64,000 bases of DNA from Nitrospirales bacterium (GCA_038200765.1 JBBRRK010000001.1:8975-72974); one strand, 5' to 3'; positions 10,076-56,167 are shown, counted from the stretch's first letter. Notes: generated from the sequence alone by a model not told the origin. Numbers and translations: made by a program.

Positions 10076-10185
10076 CAGGATAGTGTAAACGGCCCCAACG
10101 GCGTTCTCACCTCGGCCACATCCTCAACGTACCCCAGCGGATACGGCTACGATGTGGCCATCGGCTACGGCCTTGCCTGGTGAAA
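10076..10185. repeat. F1 repeat, degenerate copy (C)
   Basis: caggatagtgtaaacggccccaacggcgttctc...ctcaacgtacc...ggccttgc aligns with the F1 core. The 3' terminus is eroded. Confidence 0.6.
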
Positions 10186-10334
10186 GACGCGTCTCGGCGC
10201 GCCAGGGTTGGGAGGGTGAGAACATCGACCGTTTTGACCATCCTGCCCACTCCACCGAAAATCCTCTTTGCTTCTCAACTCCGACTTCGCATGGCGCTCG
10301 CGCGATGGCGCTTGCTTGTGTATGCTACTGCGCC

Positions 10335-11616: not shown

Positions 11617-11748
11617 CTAGTAGGATGCTGAAAAAGTCCGCCAGCATCGTTCTCGCCTTGACCACATCCTCAACGTAGCCAAGAGGCTACGCCTCCGGTG
11701 CGGTCGTCGGCTGCGGCCTCGCCGGACGGCCTTTTTGAGCATCCTACT
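11617..11748. repeat. F1 repeat, short form (A)
   Basis: ctagtaggatgctgaaaaag...ctcaacgta...ctttttgagcatcctactgg. A long imperfect palindrome. Confidence 0.85.
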
Positions 11749-11797: not shown

Positions 11798-12577
11798 TCA
11801 TCGTGAGGCCTCTGCCTGCAGATGGGTAATAAGCCAATCGCTGATCGAAGTCGTCATCTGGCGAAAATCTTCCTCCCGAGTGAATTGGTGATCGACTCCT
11901 GGCAGAAGATCAAGCCTCTTAGGTCCTTTCAGCGCGTCATACAATTGCCGGCTTTGATGGAGGGGGACGCATTCGTCCTGCTCACCCTGAACAATCAGTG
12001 TGGGGATGGTGATTCGTTCAGCCGGCCCATAGGCAATCTGTCTGAGGCAGTCGTCATAAAAGCCATACCGCAAACGGACCCGATCCGGCCCCCCCATGAT
12101 GTTCGGAATCGTGTCCGTGGCATGCCACCGTGCCAACTCTTCAGCTCCGAATGTTAGGTGAAGCTCTTCCGCAAAGTCCACCACAGGGCATTTGAGGGCC
12201 AAACAAGCGAGGTCGCGGCGTTGGGCCGCCGTGAGGATGGCAACGAGTCCTCCAAAGCTTGAGCCGATGAGCCCGATTCGGTCATAGCCTCTGGCGATGA
12301 CGAGATCGAGTGCGGTTTCGGCTTGATGCACGGCCAGGGTTGTTGTGATCTCTTCGAACGGTCCATCACTGTCCCCTTGACCAAAAAAATCGAACCGAAA
12401 GGTTGCCAGGCCCTGTTCATTGAGAAGGCGGGTCAAGGTCTTATTGGTCGCGCTATTCTTGCTGGAGAGAAACCCATGGCATAGTACGACAAGCCGCGTC
12501 GTTGGTCCGTCAGGCGTACTCAAGATCGCCGCTATGCTGTGGCCATGGCGATCACGAAATGTCAGGGCTTCTTCCAT
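11798..12577 (-). CDS. alpha/beta hydrolase (dienelactone-hydrolase-like)
   Basis: VVLCHGF and nucleophile elbow GSSFGG. ATG 12577 preferred because the longer track ORF runs into repeat F1-B. Confidence 0.75.
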   Translation of the reverse strand: MEEALTFRDRHGHSIAAILSTPDGPTTRLVVLCHGFLSSKNSATNKTLTRLLNEQGLATFRFDFFGQGDSDGPFEEITTTLAVHQAETALDLVIARGYDRIGLIGSSFGGLVAILTAAQRRDLACLALKCPVVDFAEELHLTFGAEELARWHATDTIPNIMGGPDRVRLRYGFYDDCLRQIAYGPAERITIPTLIVQGEQDECVPLHQSRQLYDALKGPKRLDLLPGVDHQFTREEDFRQMTTSISDWLITHLQAEASR

Positions 12578-12672
12578 AAGGTCGTCCTTCGATCCAGCGG
12601 CTGTAGAAAACCTATTTTGACATGCTGGAAATTCGTTGGCCAGAACGTGTAGCACACCAAGAAAACACTCCC

Positions 12673-12799
12673 GCAGGATGCTCAAACAGTTCGTCCAGTA
12701 AGGCTGCAGGCGAGTCGAAACCGGAGGCGTACCCTCGGCGGTACGTTGAGGATTTCAATGAGCCGAGAACGCTGCTGGCGGACTGTTTCAGCATCCTGC
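12673..12799. repeat. F1 repeat, short form, inverted orientation (B)
   Basis: gcaggatgctcaaacag...tacgttgagg...ctgtttcagcatcctgc aligns with the reverse complement of the 53.3 kb copy. Confidence 0.85.
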
Positions 12800-27643: not shown

Positions 27644-27756
27644 GTTTCGTTTCCTTACGCGAGAGAAGAATTACACAGAGCGAGCACGCGCACTTGACCG
27701 GCCGTTGAGCTTTACCTTATTCTACACATCCTGTTGATGTGACTGCTAGTGGTCTC

Positions 27757-27953
27757 GCAGGATAGTGAAAAAGTCCGCCAGCGGCGTTCTCGCATCGCTC
27801 AGAGGCTCAACGTACCGAAGCGTACGCCTCGCCTCTTCGCTCGCTGCGACCTCGCTGAACGGCCTTTCTGAGCATCCTGTGCGCGGTGTGTTGTTGGCCC
27901 AGACGTGCGGACCAGTGAAGCCTTGGTGGCCCACAGAGTTTTTGCGTGGCCTG
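27757..27953. repeat. F1 repeat, long form (D)
   Basis: The core gcaggatagtgaaaaag...ctttctgagcatcctg is near-identical to the 50.1 and 53.3 kb copies. The tail ends gagtttttgcgtggcctg. Confidence 0.85.
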
Positions 27954-48927: not shown

Positions 48928-49575
48928 ATGACGAGAAATCGAACGCGCGGGCGACTGAGCATTGCCGTCATCCTACTCGGTCTGTTGTGGCCGATGGTCC
49001 CAGAAGGCCGTGCCGGGCAGCTGGATCAACTCACCGACCTGACCGGCAAGACTACCGTCGTCGTCACCCTCAAAGGGCGGGATAACTTTACGAGCGAATA
49101 CCGCTACGATGTCAGTGTCAGAAACCACTCGTCCGATGTGCTGATTGCCGACTCACTGGTGATCGTCCTCGATAAGATTACCAACCTTGCTGGTCAAGAC
49201 CGAGAAGGGTTAACAGGGGAATCCTTCCTCGGGCGGTTCGATATTTTGGGTCAAGACGGCGAAACCGATGACGCCAAACCATTTTTCCGCGTTCCAGTTG
49301 GCCAGTCCAAAGACCTCGACTCGCTTGCTGACAGCCTCCCGGCCACCGTGCGCCTCAGAAACAAGGACTATGTCTCGGTCTTTACGCCTTTCTTTAAAGT
49401 GCTGGGGGAAAAACGTCCGCCGCCTGAGCCAAAACAAACCCAAGCAGCAGCCCCGGTTCAGCCGGGAATCACTCCGCCCCCGCCCAATCATCACTCCGTC
49501 GACAAGCTGATTCAGTTGTTGATCAAAAAAGGCGTGGTCACTGAAGAAGAATGGCGGAAGGCCAACCAGCCATGA
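48928..49575 (+). CDS. secreted hypothetical protein
   Basis: Signal peptide MTRNRTRGRLSIAVILLGLLWPMVPEGRA. No domain recognised. Confidence 0.55.
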   Translation: MTRNRTRGRLSIAVILLGLLWPMVPEGRAGQLDQLTDLTGKTTVVVTLKGRDNFTSEYRYDVSVRNHSSDVLIADSLVIVLDKITNLAGQDREGLTGESFLGRFDILGQDGETDDAKPFFRVPVGQSKDLDSLADSLPATVRLRNKDYVSVFTPFFKVLGEKRPPPEPKQTQAAAPVQPGITPPPPNHHSVDKLIQLLIKKGVVTEEEWRKANQP

Positions 49576-50003
49576 CGGATCCAACGTGCAAGGCCTGCCA
49601 AGGCAGCTGGCCAAAAGAAGACCATTTTATTGCAGATCTGGGCCTCTCTAAGGCCTATCTGCACGACGATCAATTTTTCCCAGGTTGGACCGTCGTCGTC
49701 TTCAAACGCCACGCGACAGAGCTGTTTCATCTCGCTCCCACGGAACGTATTCAGCTGATGGAGGAAGTGAACCTCGTCGCTAAGACCCTGGCCCAGATCT
49801 ATGAGGCCAGGAAGATCAACTATGAACTCCTTGGCAACCAACTCCCCCACATCCACTGGCATGTGATTCCCAGACTGGCCAACGACCCAGCTCCCCTTGA
49901 GCCAGTGTGGCGAGTGCAACATGAGCCCATGCTCCGTTCAGGGCCTGATTCCCAGCGCACAATCCAGCGCCTGCAGCAGGCCATTAACCCGAATTATTCT
50001 TGA
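49572..50003 (+). CDS. HIT-family protein
   Basis: Histidine triad HIHWHVIPR. ATGA overlap with the upstream gene. The last 6 codons lie inside repeat F2-3. Confidence 0.8.
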   Translation: MTDPTCKACQGSWPKEDHFIADLGLSKAYLHDDQFFPGWTVVVFKRHATELFHLAPTERIQLMEEVNLVAKTLAQIYEARKINYELLGNQLPHIHWHVIPRLANDPAPLEPVWRVQHEPMLRSGPDSQRTIQRLQQAINPNYS

Positions 50004-50401
50004 CGATTCGTCGCGAAATCGCGCAGTCGCCAAGTGAGACAGGCGCGCGGAGCCGTGAGGGATGGAAGCATACTTGCAACAGAATGTTGACCGACCGAGT
50101 GGCGAGCCCGCCTGCCTAGCAGGATACTGAAAAAGTCCGCCAGCGGCGTTCTCGCATCGCTCAGAGACTCAACGTACCGAAGCGTACGCCTCGCCTCTTC
50201 GCTCGCTACGGCCTTGCTGGACAGCCTTTTTGAGCATCCTGAGACTATTGTGACATTGGCGCCATAGGGAAGATTCAATCAGCGTCTTGTGTATACACCG
50301 AGCTTTTCCGCAGCCTGTCTAGACGCCGTGCCACCGCGTCTAGGCTTGTCGCAGCGGCGAATCCGCGATTGCAGCAGAAGCGATCATGAATAATACGGGT
50401 T
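49986..50401. repeat. F2 repeat copy 3 (inverted), interrupted by an F1 element
   Basis: The reverse complement of 49986-50115 aligns with the 3' two-thirds of F2 copy 1. The reverse complement of about 50341-50401 aligns with its 5' 60 nt. Confidence 0.75.
50116..50322. repeat. F1 repeat, long form (E), nested in F2 copy 3
   Basis: ctagcaggatactgaaaaag...ctttttgagcatcctg, then a tail ending ccgcagcctgtctag. The core differs from the 53.3 kb copy at 4 positions. Confidence 0.85.
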
Positions 50402-50525
50402 GAGAACGCCTGCTGAATCACGATTCGCGGCTCGCTTCAACGAATTCCACACGACCCACCGTCGCCGATTCGGTGCTATACTGCTGTCCATCCTTGCAAC
50501 AGATCCGGAGGATCACAGGTTTCCA

Positions 50526-51785
50526 ATGCGTCCTCGATTGGTGTTCGTGACCCTCTTGTTCGCGTCATGCATTATTGAATTTCCCGTTCCTCCGTCGTTC
50601 GCGCAAGCGCCAGAGAACACTCTGCCTCCGATAATCGAGTCCCCATCGCCCTCTTCCGAAACCTCGCCTACTCCAGCGTATACGGATGAGCATCAGCTCC
50701 CCGAACTCTTACAGCATGAACGAACGGACGCCGTGACGGAACTGGGAGAATTGCGCACCGCAGTCCGTCTGTCGCCGGACAGCGCCGCCGACCGGCTGAA
50801 GTTGGCGCAAGGGCTCTACCGCATCGGTGATCTCGATGCCGCGCTCGATGAATGCCGCGTGGCGATCACGCTTGAGTCGGACAACGCCAGGGCCCACCTG
50901 CAACTCGGCATCACGTTGATGGCCAAGCAAGATGCACGTGCCGCGGCCCTAGCCTTGACGGACGCTATTCTGCTCGATCCTGAACTCACACATGCGCATT
51001 ACAGCCTCGGGAGCGTCCACTACTCGCTGGGCCATCTCACAGCCGCGATCCAATCCTATCGCCGAGCCTTAGATCTACAATCGAACTTTCTCGACGCCCG
51101 CTATCGTCTTGCGCTGGTCTTGAAGCTGAAGAATCGACATCAGGAAGCGGTGCAATTGATGGAGCACGCGGCGATCGGCGGGGTCCCGCAGGCGCAGTAT
51201 TTTATGGGGAACGCCTATCGCAACGGACAGGGCGTCGACAAGAATCTCGCCCTCGCGATCCGTTGGTGGACCAAGGCCGTGGAGTTCGGCCAGCCGCGCG
51301 CAGCGGAATCCCTTTCACTGCTTCGTCGCCAAGCGCTCTCGCCTGACCAGTCTGAGCGTCGTCGAAAAGACGCGTCCGAGGCCTTCAGACAATATCGCGA
51401 CGAACTCTGGACTGCCTACCCGGATACCGAGAGAATCGACCAGACCGAATCATTGGGTATTGCCTTGCTCAAAGACGGCCAAGCCTCCAACGGAGTCAGA
51501 GTTCTGTTTGCCGAAGCCTTTGCACTCGCTGAGACTGCGCACGACGAACTGGCACGCTTGTATGAAACCGGCCTCGATACCCGCCTCGCTCAATTCGATT
51601 CGCGTATCCTGGCCTGTTTTGGAACCACCGCTGCCGATGGTTTCATCCCGGCAAAGAAAGCGCTGGCGCGCATCTATGGCAAAGGCCTCGGGGTCACGCC
51701 GGATGTGAAGAAAGCCAAAGCGATGCTGAAGGGGCTGTCCAAGCAGGAAACAAAAGCCATCCTGGGCGAGATTGCAGGACGCTAG
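50526..51785 (+). CDS. secreted TPR / Sel1-repeat protein
   Basis: Signal peptide from ATG 50526. TPR repeats followed by Sel1-like AQYFMGNAYRNGQGVDKNLALAIRWW. Confidence 0.75.
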   Translation: MRPRLVFVTLLFASCIIEFPVPPSFAQAPENTLPPIIESPSPSSETSPTPAYTDEHQLPELLQHERTDAVTELGELRTAVRLSPDSAADRLKLAQGLYRIGDLDAALDECRVAITLESDNARAHLQLGITLMAKQDARAAALALTDAILLDPELTHAHYSLGSVHYSLGHLTAAIQSYRRALDLQSNFLDARYRLALVLKLKNRHQEAVQLMEHAAIGGVPQAQYFMGNAYRNGQGVDKNLALAIRWWTKAVEFGQPRAAESLSLLRRQALSPDQSERRRKDASEAFRQYRDELWTAYPDTERIDQTESLGIALLKDGQASNGVRVLFAEAFALAETAHDELARLYETGLDTRLAQFDSRILACFGTTAADGFIPAKKALARIYGKGLGVTPDVKKAKAMLKGLSKQETKAILGEIAGR

Positions 51786-51793
51786 CAAAGGCC

Positions 51794-51864
51794 GTGAACG
51801 GTGAAACGGAGGACTGCTCGCCTCTTCCTCTGAAACGTTTCACGTCTCACATGTAACGTTTCAC
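51794..51864. repeat. F5 heptad element (site 4)
   Basis: GTGAACG-GTGAAAC...GAAAC-GTTTCAC-GTCTCAC-ATGTAAC-GTTTCAC. Confidence 0.7.
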
Positions 51865-51909
51865 AGATCCATGCCAGAATAGCATCTCAATCGTTTGCAG
51901 GAAATAATC

Positions 51910-53340
51910 ATGCTCGATACCTCACGCCTGTGGCGACAATTTCTCAGCTCCTCCTGGCTCCAAGCCGGGGCGATGGGGCTACTTGCGACCCTCCTGGCGT
52001 TCGGCCTGTGGGCTGCAGCCTCAACGACATTCACAGCGCTCGACTGGGCCGCGTACGATTTCTGGTTGACCGATCGCGCATCCATCTCAGTCAGCCCGTC
52101 TCTTCTCATCGTCACACGGGATCCAGCCAGCGAAGAAGAGTTTGGTAGCGGGCCATGGGACCGGGCCATCTTCGCACGTCTACTAACCAGCGCGCATGAA
52201 TCCGGCGCTCTCGCCATCGGCCTGGATCATCGCTTCGACCACGCCAGCCCGGCGCAGCTCGGCGGAGCAGCGAGCGATGCCCTGCTGCTTGAAGCCATGA
52301 GCACCGCCGGGCCTATCGTCGTGGTACAGAGCCCTGATGCGACGTTTGCCTCGGACACAACCATCGTGGGCCATCTGCTGGTCACAACCCATTCCGATCA
52401 CGTCGCACGAACGGTGCCTGTGATGGTACCCGGCGACAGACAATCCGCCCCAGCCTTCGGGATTGCATTGTACGAGGCCTATCAACAACAGACCTTATCG
52501 ACGAAACCGTCTCTTTCCGAAGGAGTCACGGCCTCGTTCTTAGTCAACTATGTCGGCAATGGAACGGTCGACGCATTCCCAACCGTTCCTCTATCATCCG
52601 TCTGGAACGCCATTGTGCATCATGAGAGCGATCGGCTCACCAAGTGGTTCAAGGGTAAAATAGTCGTGTTTCTTCCAAGTCCGATCGAGGGAGGACGCTC
52701 GCTCTTGCCCACGGGACAGACGGTTACTAGCTCCGTAGTCCATCTCCACGTCTTGAACATGCTACTGACCGGCAACCGGTTCTCCCAACTCGACGCAGCC
52801 AGCCGCTCGTTCATCACACTGCTTGTAGCTGGAGTGGTCGCCTGGCTCTTGCTTCGATTCCGAGGCACGACCAGCCTGCTCCTTGCCGGGAAGGCCATTG
52901 CCACATATGGCATAGTCACTTTCCTCGCGCTCGTGGTGGCCAACTTGGTACTTCCCCTCTCCATGCCCCTGACGGCCGCCCTGTTGGTGCTCGTCGGCAC
53001 AACCATTTGGAGCCACCTGACCGCGCATCAGCGGCTGATACTCTTAGAGCAGGATATGCTCCGCCTGCAGCAGGAAGCCGTCGCCGTGCGTGAAGCCCTG
53101 GTTCTGCGCGAGACCCGAGCAGAGACCTTGCAAGAAGATCTTGCCGTCGCGCGGGCTGCCATCTCGCAATCGATAGATCAACAGGACGCACTTACCAAAT
53201 CCGCAGATGTCCTTCGCTCCCAACTCACCGACGCCCAGGCACAGGAAGATGAAGCGCGCAAGAAACTGGAAGGACTCGAACAGCAATTGCATGGTCTGCG
53301 TGCGGCCACACATGATCCCCTGTCACTAGCAGGATGCTGA
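51910..53340 (+). CDS. CHASE2-domain membrane sensor with C-terminal coiled coil; probably the 5' half of an interrupted gene
   Basis: N-terminal TM helix, CHASE2-like region (DFWLTDR.., GLDHRFD), three TM helices, and a coiled coil of about 100 aa. The stop codon lies inside repeat F1-F. Confidence 0.7.
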   Translation: MLDTSRLWRQFLSSSWLQAGAMGLLATLLAFGLWAAASTTFTALDWAAYDFWLTDRASISVSPSLLIVTRDPASEEEFGSGPWDRAIFARLLTSAHESGALAIGLDHRFDHASPAQLGGAASDALLLEAMSTAGPIVVVQSPDATFASDTTIVGHLLVTTHSDHVARTVPVMVPGDRQSAPAFGIALYEAYQQQTLSTKPSLSEGVTASFLVNYVGNGTVDAFPTVPLSSVWNAIVHHESDRLTKWFKGKIVVFLPSPIEGGRSLLPTGQTVTSSVVHLHVLNMLLTGNRFSQLDAASRSFITLLVAGVVAWLLLRFRGTTSLLLAGKAIATYGIVTFLALVVANLVLPLSMPLTAALLVLVGTTIWSHLTAHQRLILLEQDMLRLQQEAVAVREALVLRETRAETLQEDLAVARAAISQSIDQQDALTKSADVLRSQLTDAQAQEDEARKKLEGLEQQLHGLRAATHDPLSLAGC

Positions 53341-53531
53341 AAAAGTCCGCCAGCGGCGTTCTCGCATCGCTCAGAGGCTCAACGTACCGAAGCGTACGCC
53401 TCGCCTCTTCGCTCGCTGCGGCCTTGCTGGACGGCCTTTTTGAGCATCCTGAGGTTATTCTGCCTTCATCACCGTACGGAAAATTCCAACCATATTTTCG
53501 GCATCAACCGAGTTTTTCCGCAGCCTGCTAG
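53326..53531. repeat. F1 repeat, long form (F), inserted between the CHASE2 and sigma54-activator ORFs
   Basis: CTAGCAGGATGCTGAAAAAG...CTTTTTGAGCATCCTG...CCGCAGCCTGCTAG, with CTAG at both ends. Confidence 0.9.
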
Positions 53532-53536
53532 GCGAT

Positions 53537-54769
53537 GTGGAACTCGATCGCCTCAGGGATGAATGCCGACAGCTCGGCATCATCACCCAAGACTCCGCTC
53601 TCTTGCGCCTCTATTGGGATCTCAAAAAAGGGGCCAAGTCGCCTCTGACAGTCCTGGTGCTCGGCGAACCAGGGACCGGGAAAGAACTCTTCGCCCGAGC
53701 GGTTCACCGGCTCAGTCCGAGGACCAGCAAGACCTTCATCGCCGTCAATATGGCGGCCATTTCTCCGGAACTCTTCGAAAGCGAACTCTTCGGCCATAGC
53801 AAAGGCAGCTTTACCGGGGCCACAGCAGACCGGCGCGGCTATTTCGAGCTGGCGAACCACGGCACGATCTTCTTGGACGAAATCGGCGATCTCCGTTTGG
53901 ACCACCAGAGCAAACTGCTGCGGGTCTTACAGGAGAAGTCTTTCTACCGAGTCGGCGCGACGGTCCCAACGACGGTTGATGTGCGTATCGTGGCCGCAAC
54001 GAATCGCGACCTGCAGCGCGGGGTGTCGGAAGGCTGGTTCCGTGAAGATCTGTATTTCAGGCTGACAGGTCTCGTGTTCCGGCTGCCGCCGCTACGCGAA
54101 CGAACTGGCGACGTGCCGATCCTCGCGGACATTTGTCTCGCCGAGATCGCCGACCAGATGGGCAAGCCGGTCCCGAAGCTTTCACACGAGGCGCTCCGCG
54201 CCCTGGTGGAGCACGAGTGGAAGGGCAACGTGAGGGAGTTCCGGCATTGCCTGGAGCAGGCTATCGCACTCAACGACGGCCCTTTGCTCACCAAAGAATC
54301 ATTACGCCTCGGCAGCGCATTCGCATCGCCTGCTGGTCGAGCCAAACCATCACAGATTCTTCCTGACCCAGTCAGCGATGCCGCTGTGCTGAATTGCCTC
54401 CGTCAGCAAAGCTTCGACATGCAGGCAACGGCGAACACGTTAGGCTGGGATCGCAGCACCGTGACGCAACGATTGAAGGGCCTGTGCTTCCAAGCACTGG
54501 TCGAAGCCACCGGCGATCAGGCGCGCGCCGCACTGGCCATCGCCGGCGACCCCAGCCAACTGAGAACCGTTGAGCTGAAGCTCATGGACTACCACAGCCA
54601 CCTCATGTCCGTGATCGAACCCTTCGCCACAGCCAACGAAGCGCTCCTCGACTGCAAACGGCGATTCAAAAACCTCCCGGATCGGCATTTCCGCTCGGTG
54701 GAAACGTTGGTCCAACGACACTTTCGTCAGAACAGACCCATTTCACTCGGACTCAGGAAAGGTTTCTGA
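53537..54769 (+). CDS. sigma54-dependent transcriptional activator core (AAA+ plus HTH) without an N-terminal sensory domain; probably the 3' half of an interrupted gene
   Basis: GTG start without a good RBS. Walker A GEPGTGKE, GSFTGA (GAFTGA-loop variant), FLDEIGDL, and the Fis-type HTH MQATANTLGWDRSTVTQRL. Confidence 0.8.
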   Translation: MELDRLRDECRQLGIITQDSALLRLYWDLKKGAKSPLTVLVLGEPGTGKELFARAVHRLSPRTSKTFIAVNMAAISPELFESELFGHSKGSFTGATADRRGYFELANHGTIFLDEIGDLRLDHQSKLLRVLQEKSFYRVGATVPTTVDVRIVAATNRDLQRGVSEGWFREDLYFRLTGLVFRLPPLRERTGDVPILADICLAEIADQMGKPVPKLSHEALRALVEHEWKGNVREFRHCLEQAIALNDGPLLTKESLRLGSAFASPAGRAKPSQILPDPVSDAAVLNCLRQQSFDMQATANTLGWDRSTVTQRLKGLCFQALVEATGDQARAALAIAGDPSQLRTVELKLMDYHSHLMSVIEPFATANEALLDCKRRFKNLPDRHFRSVETLVQRHFRQNRPISLGLRKGF

Positions 54770-54989
54770 CACCTTCCCCCTGCCTTGGTTCTTGGTCAGA
54801 GTATCGCGTGCATATTCGCGGTATCGACGCAACGACACCTCCGAAATCACGACTGATATGAGCTCGCCGCGCTCATATTGAGAGAGAATATCTTATTCGT
54901 CTTGATCCAACTTCTTCTTCATTTCTCACCTCTTCCACCATAGTCCCGAGTGGCTTTTCGGCTTTCTTCGATGAACCGCACCGAACAAG

Positions 54990-55471
54990 TCACGCGGCTT
55001 TCCCACGTGCTGCCTTGGTTCGAACGAGAAGATCGATATCGCAATCCAACACATGCAGTAAGGACAAAATTTGATCGATCGACTTGCTGTAGTTCGTTTG
55101 ATCGAGCAAACGATAGAACTGCGTAGCGGAGGTTCCCAGTCGCCGTATGATCTCGCGCTTCAACAAGGTACTCGCCTCGACTCGCTTCTGCGCTTCGATC
55201 GTCAGCTTATAGAGCAGCCATCCCGCAAGTAATGCGGGTCCTGGTTGTATTCCAATACTTGCTCGCTGTGGACCGTTCCTTCCTTGCCCGATTCCAGCAC
55301 ATAGATGAACCCTTCACTCCCCAGCTCTTTACCGACGAAGACCCGGGTGATCGGATCGGCGGCACTGGGTTGAGGATCGACCTTTGAGTAGGGAAGCTAG
55401 AACAGCTTCTTAGACGCCTTCACCTGAAACGCCTCCTTGCGATTGTTGCGGGTGACTGACTGAATCTTCAT
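54990..55471 (-). pseudogene. disrupted gene for an HTH-containing partner of the DUF4160-like protein
   Basis: MKIQSVTRNNRKEAFQVKASKKLF, then TAG (55397-55399), then LPYSKVDP..VLEYNQDPHYL. A frameshift follows, then LLYKLTIEAQ..REIIRRLGTSATQFYRLLDQTNYSKSIDQ. ATGA overlap with the upstream ORF. Confidence 0.55.
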
Positions 55472-55668
55472 AGCGCCCCCCCTGATTCCAGTTGATCAAG
55501 CAACAAGCGAACTCGTCGCGTAGCCTTCTCCATCATCGGCTTCCTGCTATCCAAGGCCCATTTCCCGATGAGCACCCCATCACGATATACGTGCACATGC
55601 TGGGGAGAATGATCGCCTTTCCACGTGACGACGATATAACCACTCCAGCGAACCTTACCCATGAACAA
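55468..55668 (-). CDS. small DUF4160-like protein
   Basis: 66 aa. GDHSPQHVHVYRDG motif, recalled as DUF4160-like. Confidence 0.5.
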   Translation of the reverse strand: MFMGKVRWSGYIVVTWKGDHSPQHVHVYRDGVLIGKWALDSRKPMMEKATRRVRLLLDQLESGGAL

Positions 55669-55729
55669 GTGCTACCTCTAGAGGTATCACTTGTCAACCG
55701 CGATGACTGTTGCCACCACTCAGTTCACG

Positions 55730-56167
55730 TTAGCAGGAAGTTGGATCGGGAGAAGCAGGGTCGAATCCTTCATCGCGAACATCCAAGATGAGTTCATAGG
55801 GAGCCATGGGCGAGAAATTCGCGCGCAACGCAATGCACTTCCCGACCACGTTGTCCTGCGCGCTTCGCTCAATCAGTGTCGCAAGACGGAGAAGATCCAC
55901 CAATGGGCCGCCGATCCACTGCTCAGTGATTTCCGTTTGATGCGAGGTGCCCACTTCCAGATTCATAGCCGGCCCCAGCTGAGTATATTCCGACAGCCGA
56001 TCATTCGCTGGGTTAGACGCGTATTTGCGTATCTCGGCTGCGAATTTCCGCAAACCCGTCACCGACCCGATAATGCGCCACTCCTTCGCGCCATCATTTT
56101 TACCGCAAAAAAATCCCAACTTGCGCCAAGCCAGGCGCGTCGCTTCATTCGCTGCTTCATTTGGCAT
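55730..56167 (-). CDS. hypothetical protein (possibly immunity-protein-like)
   Basis: 145 aa, 9 nt downstream of the GNAT gene. Faint resemblance to Imm32-type proteins (WRIIGSVTGLRKFAAEI). Weak evidence. Confidence 0.45.
   Translation of the reverse strand: MPNEAANEATRLAWRKLGFFCGKNDGAKEWRIIGSVTGLRKFAAEIRKYASNPANDRLSEYTQLGPAMNLEVGTSHQTEITEQWIGGPLVDLLRLATLIERSAQDNVVGKCIALRANFSPMAPYELILDVRDEGFDPASPDPTSC

Follow-up and report, generated by a model that had tools for sequence, protein, structure and literature searches.

MITEs (miniature inverted-repeat transposable elements) that lie in genes or disrupt them are known from bacteria, as in the Correia elements of Neisseria, the Rickettsia palindromic elements (RPEs) and the cyanobacterial Nezha element. 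Among the sigma-54 activators, those of the NtrC1/DctD type carry an N-terminal module and a coiled-coil linker that hold the AAA+ domain as an inactive dimer, and the sensor domain CHASE2 is reportedly best known from fusions to cyclases, GGDEF domains, histidine kinases and Ser/Thr kinases. Here we analyze a locus where a MITE and a regulator combining CHASE2 with a sigma-54 activator meet. It is located in a stretch of 64,000 nucleotides from a Nitrospirales bacterium (GCA_038200765.1, JBBRRK010000001.1:8975-72974), in the following called the window, with all positions counted from its first letter. We consider it probable that one ancestral gene of 885 codons, encoding a CHASE2/sigma-54 activator, has recently been cut by a 198-nt MITE, and that signal-dependent regulation was lost thereby.

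An earlier note on the window had described two open reading frames (ORFs) on either side of a repeat and had proposed that excision of 202 nt would fuse them into one ORF of about 885-890 codons. The coordinates of both ORFs, the AGC-stop end of the first one inside the repeat, the AAA+ motifs of the second one and the CTAG positions were all verified in the sequence. The junction is composed of the features below, where L001-L004 are four contigs encoding the intact orthologue P0001, taken from two JGI metagenomes and two NCBI metagenome-assembled genomes (MAGs).

51910 to 53329, plus strand: 5' part of the interrupted gene, codons 1-473 (Pfam, hydropathy, DNA identity to L001, orthologue start)
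53326 to 53329: left copy of the 4-bp target-site duplication, CTAG (sequence read; the L001 empty site has CTCG once)
53330 to 53527, plus strand: 198-nt MITE (family copies, end motifs, RNA fold, absence from L001-L004)
53334 to 53531, plus strand: 65-aa MITE ORF (ATG 1 nt before the premature TGA; its TAG lies in the right CTAG copy)
53338 to 53340, plus strand: premature TGA stop made by the insertion, three codons into the element (sequence read)
53528 to 53531: right copy of the 4-bp target-site duplication, CTAG (sequence read)
53532 to 54769, plus strand: 3' part of the interrupted gene, codons 474-885 (Pfam, DNA identity to L001, GAT GTG GAA in L001)

The gene starts at ATG 51910, in agreement with the orthologues (MLD.SRLW), and not at TTG 51895. 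The 5' ORF (51910-53340, 476 aa) has the C-terminus THDPLSL-AGC, ends at the TGA in 53338-53340 and matches the Pfam model CHASE2 (PF05226) with 90.6 bits at a cut-off of 26.3 (E = 1.6e-25). Hydropathy predicts transmembrane (TM) segments at residues ~19-37, 297-319, 325-348 and 350-368, the first N-terminal and the other three C-terminal of CHASE2, a predicted arrangement that fits an extracytoplasmic placement of this domain. The 5' part thus contains, in order, the N-terminal TM segment, CHASE2, three TM segments, a coiled coil of ~100 aa and the beginning of a variable linker. The 3' ORF (53537-54769, 410 aa) has a GTG start and matches Sigma54_activat (PF00158) with 216 bits (cut-off 20.2, E = 3.2e-64) and AAA_lid_14 with 65 bits. 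Its translation contains GEPGTGKE (Walker A), FLDEIGD (Walker B) and GSFTGA, an A-to-S variant of the GAFTGA loop, all of which are invariant in 49 orthologues. The Fis-type helix-turn-helix (HTH) is a weak match to HTH_8 in the window protein (19.6 bits, below the cut-off of 22), with 28.1 bits in the distant relatives P0132 and P0140. The 3' part begins with the linker, continues with the sigma-54 AAA+ core, the lid and the putative Fis-type HTH, and closes with a C-terminal extension of ~90 aa that is conserved. Exact look-ups of the 410-aa and 476-aa ORFs retrieved no identical protein on record. The effect of the insertion on the reading is a stop after three codons together with a frame shift of +1; when 53330-53531 (202 nt) is removed, a 2658-nt ORF of 885 codons is obtained, free of internal stops as had been proposed and reading ...THDPLSLGDVELDRLRDE... 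across the junction.

To see how relatives encode this protein, the in-silico fused product was used as query, giving 423 proteins at E <= 1e-20. The best 120 of these are all 833-894 aa in length, contain both CHASE2 and Sigma54_activat, and align with 78-91% identity and 94-100% coverage; the named ones are "sigma 54-interacting transcriptional regulator" of Nitrospira, Nitrospiraceae or Nitrospirota, and no split orthologue is found among these 120. Alignment of the fused protein with 15 intact orthologues, those examined being 884-890 aa long, has zero gaps at the junction, where the window reads THDPLSL directly followed by GDVELDRLRDE and P0001 reads TNEPLAL followed by GDVELDRLRDE. In a wider, profile-free search with P0001 against 1.84 billion cluster representatives, dozens of representatives of 850-1000 aa aligned end to end, down to ~30% identity, and CHASE2, Sigma54_activat and AAA_lid_14 were present together in 10/10 sampled ones, those with names being from Nitrospira or Nitrospirae.

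The same conclusion is reached at the DNA level. L001-L004 are syntenic with the window (proteasome/Pup genes, HIT, TPR/Sel1 and the gene for the CHASE2 enhancer-binding protein, CHASE2-EBP) at 89-95% identity, and the 53330 element is absent from all four. In BLASTN, window 50319-53327 corresponds to L001 8409-11418 with 91.6% identity and window 53528-54739 to L001 11417-12628 with 89.5%, so that the breakpoints against the syntenic contigs fall precisely at both CTAGs. The empty site in L001 reads ...CTGGCACTCGGCGATGTGG..., and the window reads ...CTGTCACTAG, with the left flank ending in CACTAG, then the 198 nt, then CTAGGCGATGTGG.... Since the MITE family is present elsewhere in the MAG supplying L002 (L075, L078), the empty site of L002 is not due to absence of the family. 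The codons GAT GTG GAA are also found in L001, which makes GTG 53537 an ancestral internal Val codon. Relatives without the repeat therefore encode one uninterrupted gene, as the earlier note had predicted, and neither do CHASE2 homologues end after the coiled coil nor do the activators start at ELDRL. Its reservation that agreement of frames would be expected in one case out of three by chance is met by the gapless junction with 15 orthologues and by breakpoints exactly at the CTAGs.

These comparisons also bear on the possibility that two genes were separate in the ancestor and became fused in other lineages. Beyond the two ORF calls nothing speaks for it, and its probability is close to nil: the protein is single in the best 120 of the 423 matches and in the 10/10 distant cluster representatives, and the DNA that separates the ORFs is a mobile element with a target duplication, absent from syntenic relatives and leaving a gapless junction. 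A genuine two-gene pair of sensor and activator was likewise considered and ruled out, as the sampled relatives all have one protein and GTG 53537 is an internal Val in L001.

The element itself has a left terminal repeat at 53330-53345, CAGGATGCTGAAAAAG, and a right one at 53512-53527, the reverse complement of which is CAGGCTGCGGAAAAAC; the two match at 13/16 positions. An internal inverted copy of the end motif is located at 53436-53451, and the element thus holds this motif three times. Owing to the left end motif and the internal inverted copy the first 122 nt form a long hairpin, which is followed by a tail of ~75 nt ending in the right repeat. The RNA fold of the element has an energy of -77.3 kcal/mol (z = -4.5), and the first 122 nt are identical to a consensus of 66 copies. 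The window contains 13 occurrences of the 16-nt end motif when up to 3 mismatches are allowed, compared with 0.8 expected by chance. An Rfam search of the window gave tRNA alone, and hence the repeat belongs to no known RNA family. When the junction region was compared with the window by BLASTN, five further matches were obtained, so that the window holds six copies or relatives of the MITE, the other five being:

50120 to 50318, plus strand: second full-length copy of the MITE, with the HIT and TPR/Sel1 genes on either side (BLASTN 50116-50325, 85% over 210 nt)
27758 to 27953, plus strand: third full-length MITE copy, 196 nt (BLASTN 27754-27879, 94%)
11621 to 11746, plus strand: diverged short (~126-nt) relative of the hairpin module (BLASTN 11617-11745, end motifs)
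12674 to 12798, minus strand: short, diverged hairpin-module relative, in opposite orientation to 11621-11746 (BLASTN 12801-12671, end motifs)
10076 to 10245, plus strand: strongly diverged relative of the repeat (BLASTN 10076-10139, end motifs)

The second copy has its CTAG duplication at 50116-50119 and 50319-50322. It is found in the metagenome contig L122, whose identity to the window is 99.8%, and is absent from L001-L004, L001 having a single CTAG at this place. A contig with this identity to the window is part of JGI metagenome 3300015360. The third copy looks older, as its flanks (CTCG, TTAA) no longer match.

When one genome per species was searched with a 35-nt pattern derived from the left end, at least 117 stretches of this family came up, and every named record is Nitrospira, Nitrospiraceae or Nitrospirota. 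In the 113 copies that were extracted the modal length is 198-199 nt, and the element is preceded by CTAG in 45 copies and by TTAG, CTAA, GTAG or ATAG in most of the others. Flanks other than CTAG that are equal on both sides (CTAA/CTAA five times; CTAC/CTAC, CTAT/CTAT and TTAG/TTAG once each) show that the duplication is 4 bp and not TA, with the consensus YTAN, mostly CTAG. The earlier suggestion of a MITE duplicating either TA or CTAG can therefore be narrowed down: the MITE and its CTAG duplication stand, the TA alternative falls, and the element proper is 198 nt. It is a MITE by its short length, lack of a transposase gene, terminal inverted repeats, target duplication with empty sites and many copies. 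A literature search on Nitrospira MITEs gave no description of this family, which is apparently undescribed. No transposase-bearing partner with the same ends was found in the window or in ~120 fetched loci, where end pairs 0.6-3 kb apart with matching flanks were looked for, and viral contigs held no MITE copy. The sole end pair in the window, 11621/12798, was rejected as an autonomous insertion sequence (IS), as it encloses an alpha/beta hydrolase and no transposase. The two short relatives at 11621-11746 (plus) and 12674-12798 (minus) flank this single hydrolase gene (11798-12685, minus strand; Pfam Hydrolase_4, 1e-21) in a layout that resembles a composite element, and no matching duplication was seen.

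Insertions into coding sequence appear to be rare in this family. Of 19 clean copies, defined by full length, perfect duplication and enough flanking sequence, the 53330 copy is the only one that breaks a long ORF (482 + 412 codons); in the other 18 the shorter of the two open sides does not exceed 51 codons. With one intragenic copy in 19, such insertions are probably purged.

The 65-aa MITE ORF has no Pfam or NCBIfam match and is probably not a gene. Its ATG frame, starting at position 5 of the element, runs to the end of the element without a stop in 30 of 61 full-length copies, compared with 9-13 of 66 for the frames open in any copy; in the window and the copies L005-L121 it is thus stop-free at two to three times the frequency of any other frame.

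Repeats of this kind also affect assembly. Contig L123 (JGI 3300041586 Ga0400277_024214) is 99.7% identical to window 49320-50241 and leaves it inside the 50120 copy into unrelated sequence, indicating that the repeat family breaks or mis-joins short-read assemblies of this population. Could the 53330 copy have been misplaced into the gene during read assembly? The behaviour of L123 and the fact that no public metagenome contig spans the junction would be in line with such an artefact, which we nevertheless regard as very improbable. Mis-joins at repeats link unrelated flanks, and here one orthologous gene continues exactly from one flank to the other; moreover, the element is full length with both termini and is bordered by a perfect 4-bp duplication of the preferred target of the family.

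Concerning the age of the insertion, the statement that both halves are otherwise intact was borne out: at columns otherwise invariant in comparison with 15 orthologues we found 1 change in 182 for the N-terminal half and 2 in 255 for the C-terminal half, which is within the range of intact proteins and no excess. The ratio of nonsynonymous to synonymous divergence (dN/dS) against L001 is 0.31 for the N-terminal and 0.11 for the C-terminal half. As neither half has decayed, the 122-nt module equals the consensus and intragenic copies are rare (1/19), the insertion is probably recent in evolutionary terms, judging from these sequence comparisons. The synonymous divergence (dS) against L001 is 0.14 in the sensor half (51910-53329) and 0.36 in the activator half (53532-54710), a 2.5-fold difference that could reflect recombination within the gene.

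Of all internal segments of the protein, the one with the break is the least conserved, its mean column conservation being 0.77 (residues 466-480) compared with 0.90-0.94 on either side. In an AlphaFold2 model of intact P0001 a non-helical break at 468-474 lies between the long helices (351-467) and a short helix (475-487). This model was built on a shallow alignment of 49 sequences, has low confidence (mean predicted local distance difference test score, pLDDT, 53; predicted template-modelling score, pTM, 0.27) and was used for the secondary-structure break alone. Since the break falls in a variable linker, both domains are left physically whole.

How the split would affect expression can be outlined from the sequence. 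No sigma-70-like site was found in or after the MITE, and a weak terminator-like hairpin with a T-run is present at 53497-53512. The in-frame starts of the 3' piece are limited to GTG 53537 (preceded by CTAGGCGAT), TTG 53603 and GTG 53657. A marginal AGG is located 4 nt upstream of GTG 53537, and the stop of the MITE ORF, TAG 53529-53531, 5 nt before it. The earlier remark that this GTG has no convincing ribosome-binding site holds, with AGG at short spacing only and the GTG being the ancestral Val codon. The comparisons above show an ancestral gene of 885 codons, encoding a TM segment, CHASE2, three TM segments, a coiled coil, the sigma-54 AAA+ core, the HTH and the C-terminal extension, that was entered by a MITE of the Nitrospira-wide family with duplication of 4 bp (CTAG). 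The point of entry is the linker joining the coiled coil to the AAA+ domain. The 5' piece could presumably still be produced as a 476-aa sensor without output domain, and the 3' piece is most likely unexpressed or poorly expressed, considering that promoter and evolved start are lacking, that the AGG is marginal, and that a strong hairpin and a weak terminator-like site lie ahead of it. Even if made, the activator fragment would be severed from its sensor, implying loss of signal-dependent regulation; loss of signalling is the most likely outcome of the split.

A different outcome would be a tolerated or adaptive split pair, in which a soluble 410-aa activator without sensor is blind to the signal and possibly constitutive, and the truncated sensor acts as a decoy. 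The route to the activator would be a stop at TGA 53338, a restart at ATG 53334, translation of the 65-codon MITE ORF to TAG 53529-53531 and reinitiation at GTG 53537. On our analysis this pair is unlikely. The stop and start codons are indeed close enough for coupling, and about half of the copies keep the MITE ATG frame open, more than is seen for other frames; on the other hand no usable Shine-Dalgarno sequence precedes the ATG of the MITE ORF, GTG 53537 is an ancestral Val codon with AGG at short spacing only, and the -77 kcal/mol hairpin and the terminator-like site intervene. The intactness of both halves, without excess change at invariant sites, and the position of the break in a variable linker that leaves the domains whole agree with a working pair, as does the alignment of the linker region to the linker and AAA+ domain of NtrC1 (1ny5, query 480-729). 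Apparently sensor-less coiled-coil relatives also occur among the cluster representatives (P0156, P0195 and P0192). Against this stand the absence of a split gene among the best 120 of the 423 matches and the avoidance of coding sequence by the other 18 clean MITE copies, suggesting that intragenic insertions are normally purged; the constitutive activity is a conjecture by analogy with the NtrC1/DctD type.

Returning to the interrupted gene with loss of regulation, some observations weigh against it. Intact halves are equally expected from ongoing selection on a functional split pair, and the 3' piece could, from the spacing of the codons, be translated by reinitiation with the MITE ORF stop 5 nt from the GTG and AGG 4 nt upstream. 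The closest empty site, in L001, is CTCG and not CTAG, so the pre-insertion CTAG, a synonymous change of CTC to CTA, is deduced from the duplication itself. Scans of metagenome contigs gave 0 matches both for the predicted CTAG empty allele and for the filled right junction; the nearest contig of the same population, L122, ends at window 52345, short of the junction. The choice between a recent insertion and a tolerated split pair, as framed in the earlier note, is upheld with the split pair as the alternative, and the evidence leans towards a recent insertion.

A more far-reaching idea, to which we give less credence still than to the split pair as such, is that the membrane-anchored CHASE2/sigma-54 activators form an unstudied class, kept throughout Nitrospira beside a TPR/Sel1 partner, of which the MITE allele would be a natural separation of domains, the 3' half being translated by termination and reinitiation via the MITE frame and acting, as a soluble protein, independently of the signal. 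If this were true, the MITE insertion would rewire regulation instead of merely killing a gene.

As to the regulator family, the earlier note had not recognized the architecture as characterized. This holds in so far as no NCBIfam model reached its cut-off (the best was NifA, with 310 bits against 528), no relevant paper pairing CHASE2 with a sigma-54 activator was found in full-text searches or among the top-ranked papers of a broader one (papers on CHASE2 and "enhancer" being unrelated), and searches for CHASE2 in Nitrospira or for transmembrane bacterial enhancer-binding proteins returned nothing relevant; it does not hold for the databases, where the protein is abundant and automatically annotated. 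The CHASE2/sigma-54 architecture is thus common, and apparently uncharacterized by experiment. In comparison with the PDB the AAA+ core matched NifA, ZraR, PspF and NtrC1 (1ny5, 1ny6 and 4l4u being of the NtrC1/DctD type) with E-values of 1e-47 to 1e-73, and no sequence-related solved structure was found for the sensor half. Sigma-54 activators usually end at the HTH, so the extension past it is unusual; it covers ~90 residues (54500-54769, residues ~796-885), contains the near-invariant motif CKRRFKNLPDRHF, has no Pfam match and is kept even in relatives at 30-40% identity. Five cluster representatives (P0156, P0192, P0195, P0207 and P0221; 425-476 aa) have a coiled-coil N-terminus and the same AAA+, HTH and C-terminal extension with no CHASE2 or TM segments; they could be sensor-less by nature, be truncated as gene calls or come from further split genes.

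Directly upstream of the regulator gene lies one further feature of interest:

50400 to 51785, plus strand: TPR/Sel1 gene (conserved gene order)

The order HIT, TPR/Sel1, CHASE2-EBP is kept in L001-L004 and in L125-L127, including orthologues at 78-82% identity, and the TPR/Sel1 and regulator genes probably form one operon. The MITE copy at 50120-50318 is located directly upstream of this operon and could affect its transcription. A scan of the 64 kb for the sigma-54 promoter consensus showed no enrichment (22 matches, 32 expected), and a candidate -24/-12 promoter at 50063-50078 was dropped, as it is not conserved in L001. Downstream of the regulator, window 54770-55730 is unlike L001 12664-14365: the relatives have a glutaredoxin gene overlapping the regulator 3' end and a 175-aa gene, and the window has minus-strand ORFs at 54990-55166 (weak Cro/C1-type HTH match) and 55468-55668 (no family). 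The last ~10 codons of the window regulator differ from those of the closest relatives. In one relative only, L127 (3971-4501; ENA ERZ25039516 contig_3775), a PEP-CTERM sorting-domain protein is encoded between the HIT and TPR/Sel1 genes; the AAA+ part of the regulator has its second-best match to the PEP-CTERM-box regulator PrsR and the TPR protein a weak one to PrsT, all far below the cut-offs. A PEP-CTERM/exosortase link, with the regulator controlling the cell envelope or exopolysaccharide, is no more than a weak lead.

For annotation, our results imply that the two ORFs should be entered as one MITE-interrupted gene or pseudogene and not as an orphan sensor next to a sensor-less activator. 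In Nitrospira MAGs the predicted MITE peptides (MLKKSASGVLASLRGSTY...) will probably turn up as spurious hypothetical proteins, and repeat-aware annotation would prevent such 65-aa calls. Activity of the family is recent enough for close relatives to differ, and its copies fragment metagenome assemblies. The locus further draws attention to a conserved, membrane-integral CHASE2/sigma-54 regulator of nitrite-oxidising Nitrospira, adjoining a TPR/Sel1 gene, for which a strain with the interrupted allele is a ready-made mutant for comparison.

Compared with known systems, the event is an ordinary gene disruption of a well-known type, and the MITE family and the regulator family are its less-known parts. 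The Nitrospira MITE resembles the known bacterial MITEs in its ~200 nt, lack of transposase, terminal inverted repeats, hairpin, target duplication, dispersed copies and presence or absence in close relatives. It differs from them by a 4-bp YTAN duplication (mostly CTAG) instead of TA, by three end motifs arranged as a 122-nt hairpin module and a variable 75-nt tail, and by being confined to Nitrospira as far as sampled. Unlike the RPEs, the 53330 copy is out of frame and truncates the host protein. Insertion sequences of the IS5 group duplicate 4 bp of a YTAR/CTAG target according to their ISfinder descriptions, and the Nitrospira MITE shares this duplication length and the preferred target CTAG, a likeness in the target; 4-bp duplications are also made by further families, IS701 among them, which are likewise a possible source of the MITE.

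The restored protein has the AAA+ core, Walker A and B motifs, GAFTGA-type loop, helical linker and a putative C-terminal Fis-type HTH in common with NtrC1/DctD-type activators and the sensor-less PspF. In contrast to NtrC1/DctD, its input is a four-TM CHASE2 module with a ~100-aa coiled coil and not a receiver, GAF or PAS domain, which would anchor the intact protein in the membrane, and a conserved ~90-aa extension with the motif CKRRFKNLPDRHF follows the HTH. With the CHASE2 receptors it shares the N-terminal TM segment, the extracytoplasmic CHASE2, the three TM segments and a cytoplasmic output behind them, the difference being that this output is a DNA-binding sigma-54 activator. Finally, it resembles ToxR and CadC in having sensor and DNA-binding output in one membrane-spanning polypeptide, by analogy and with no homology claimed, whereas these two proteins have unrelated folds, work with sigma-70 and contain no AAA+ ATPase.

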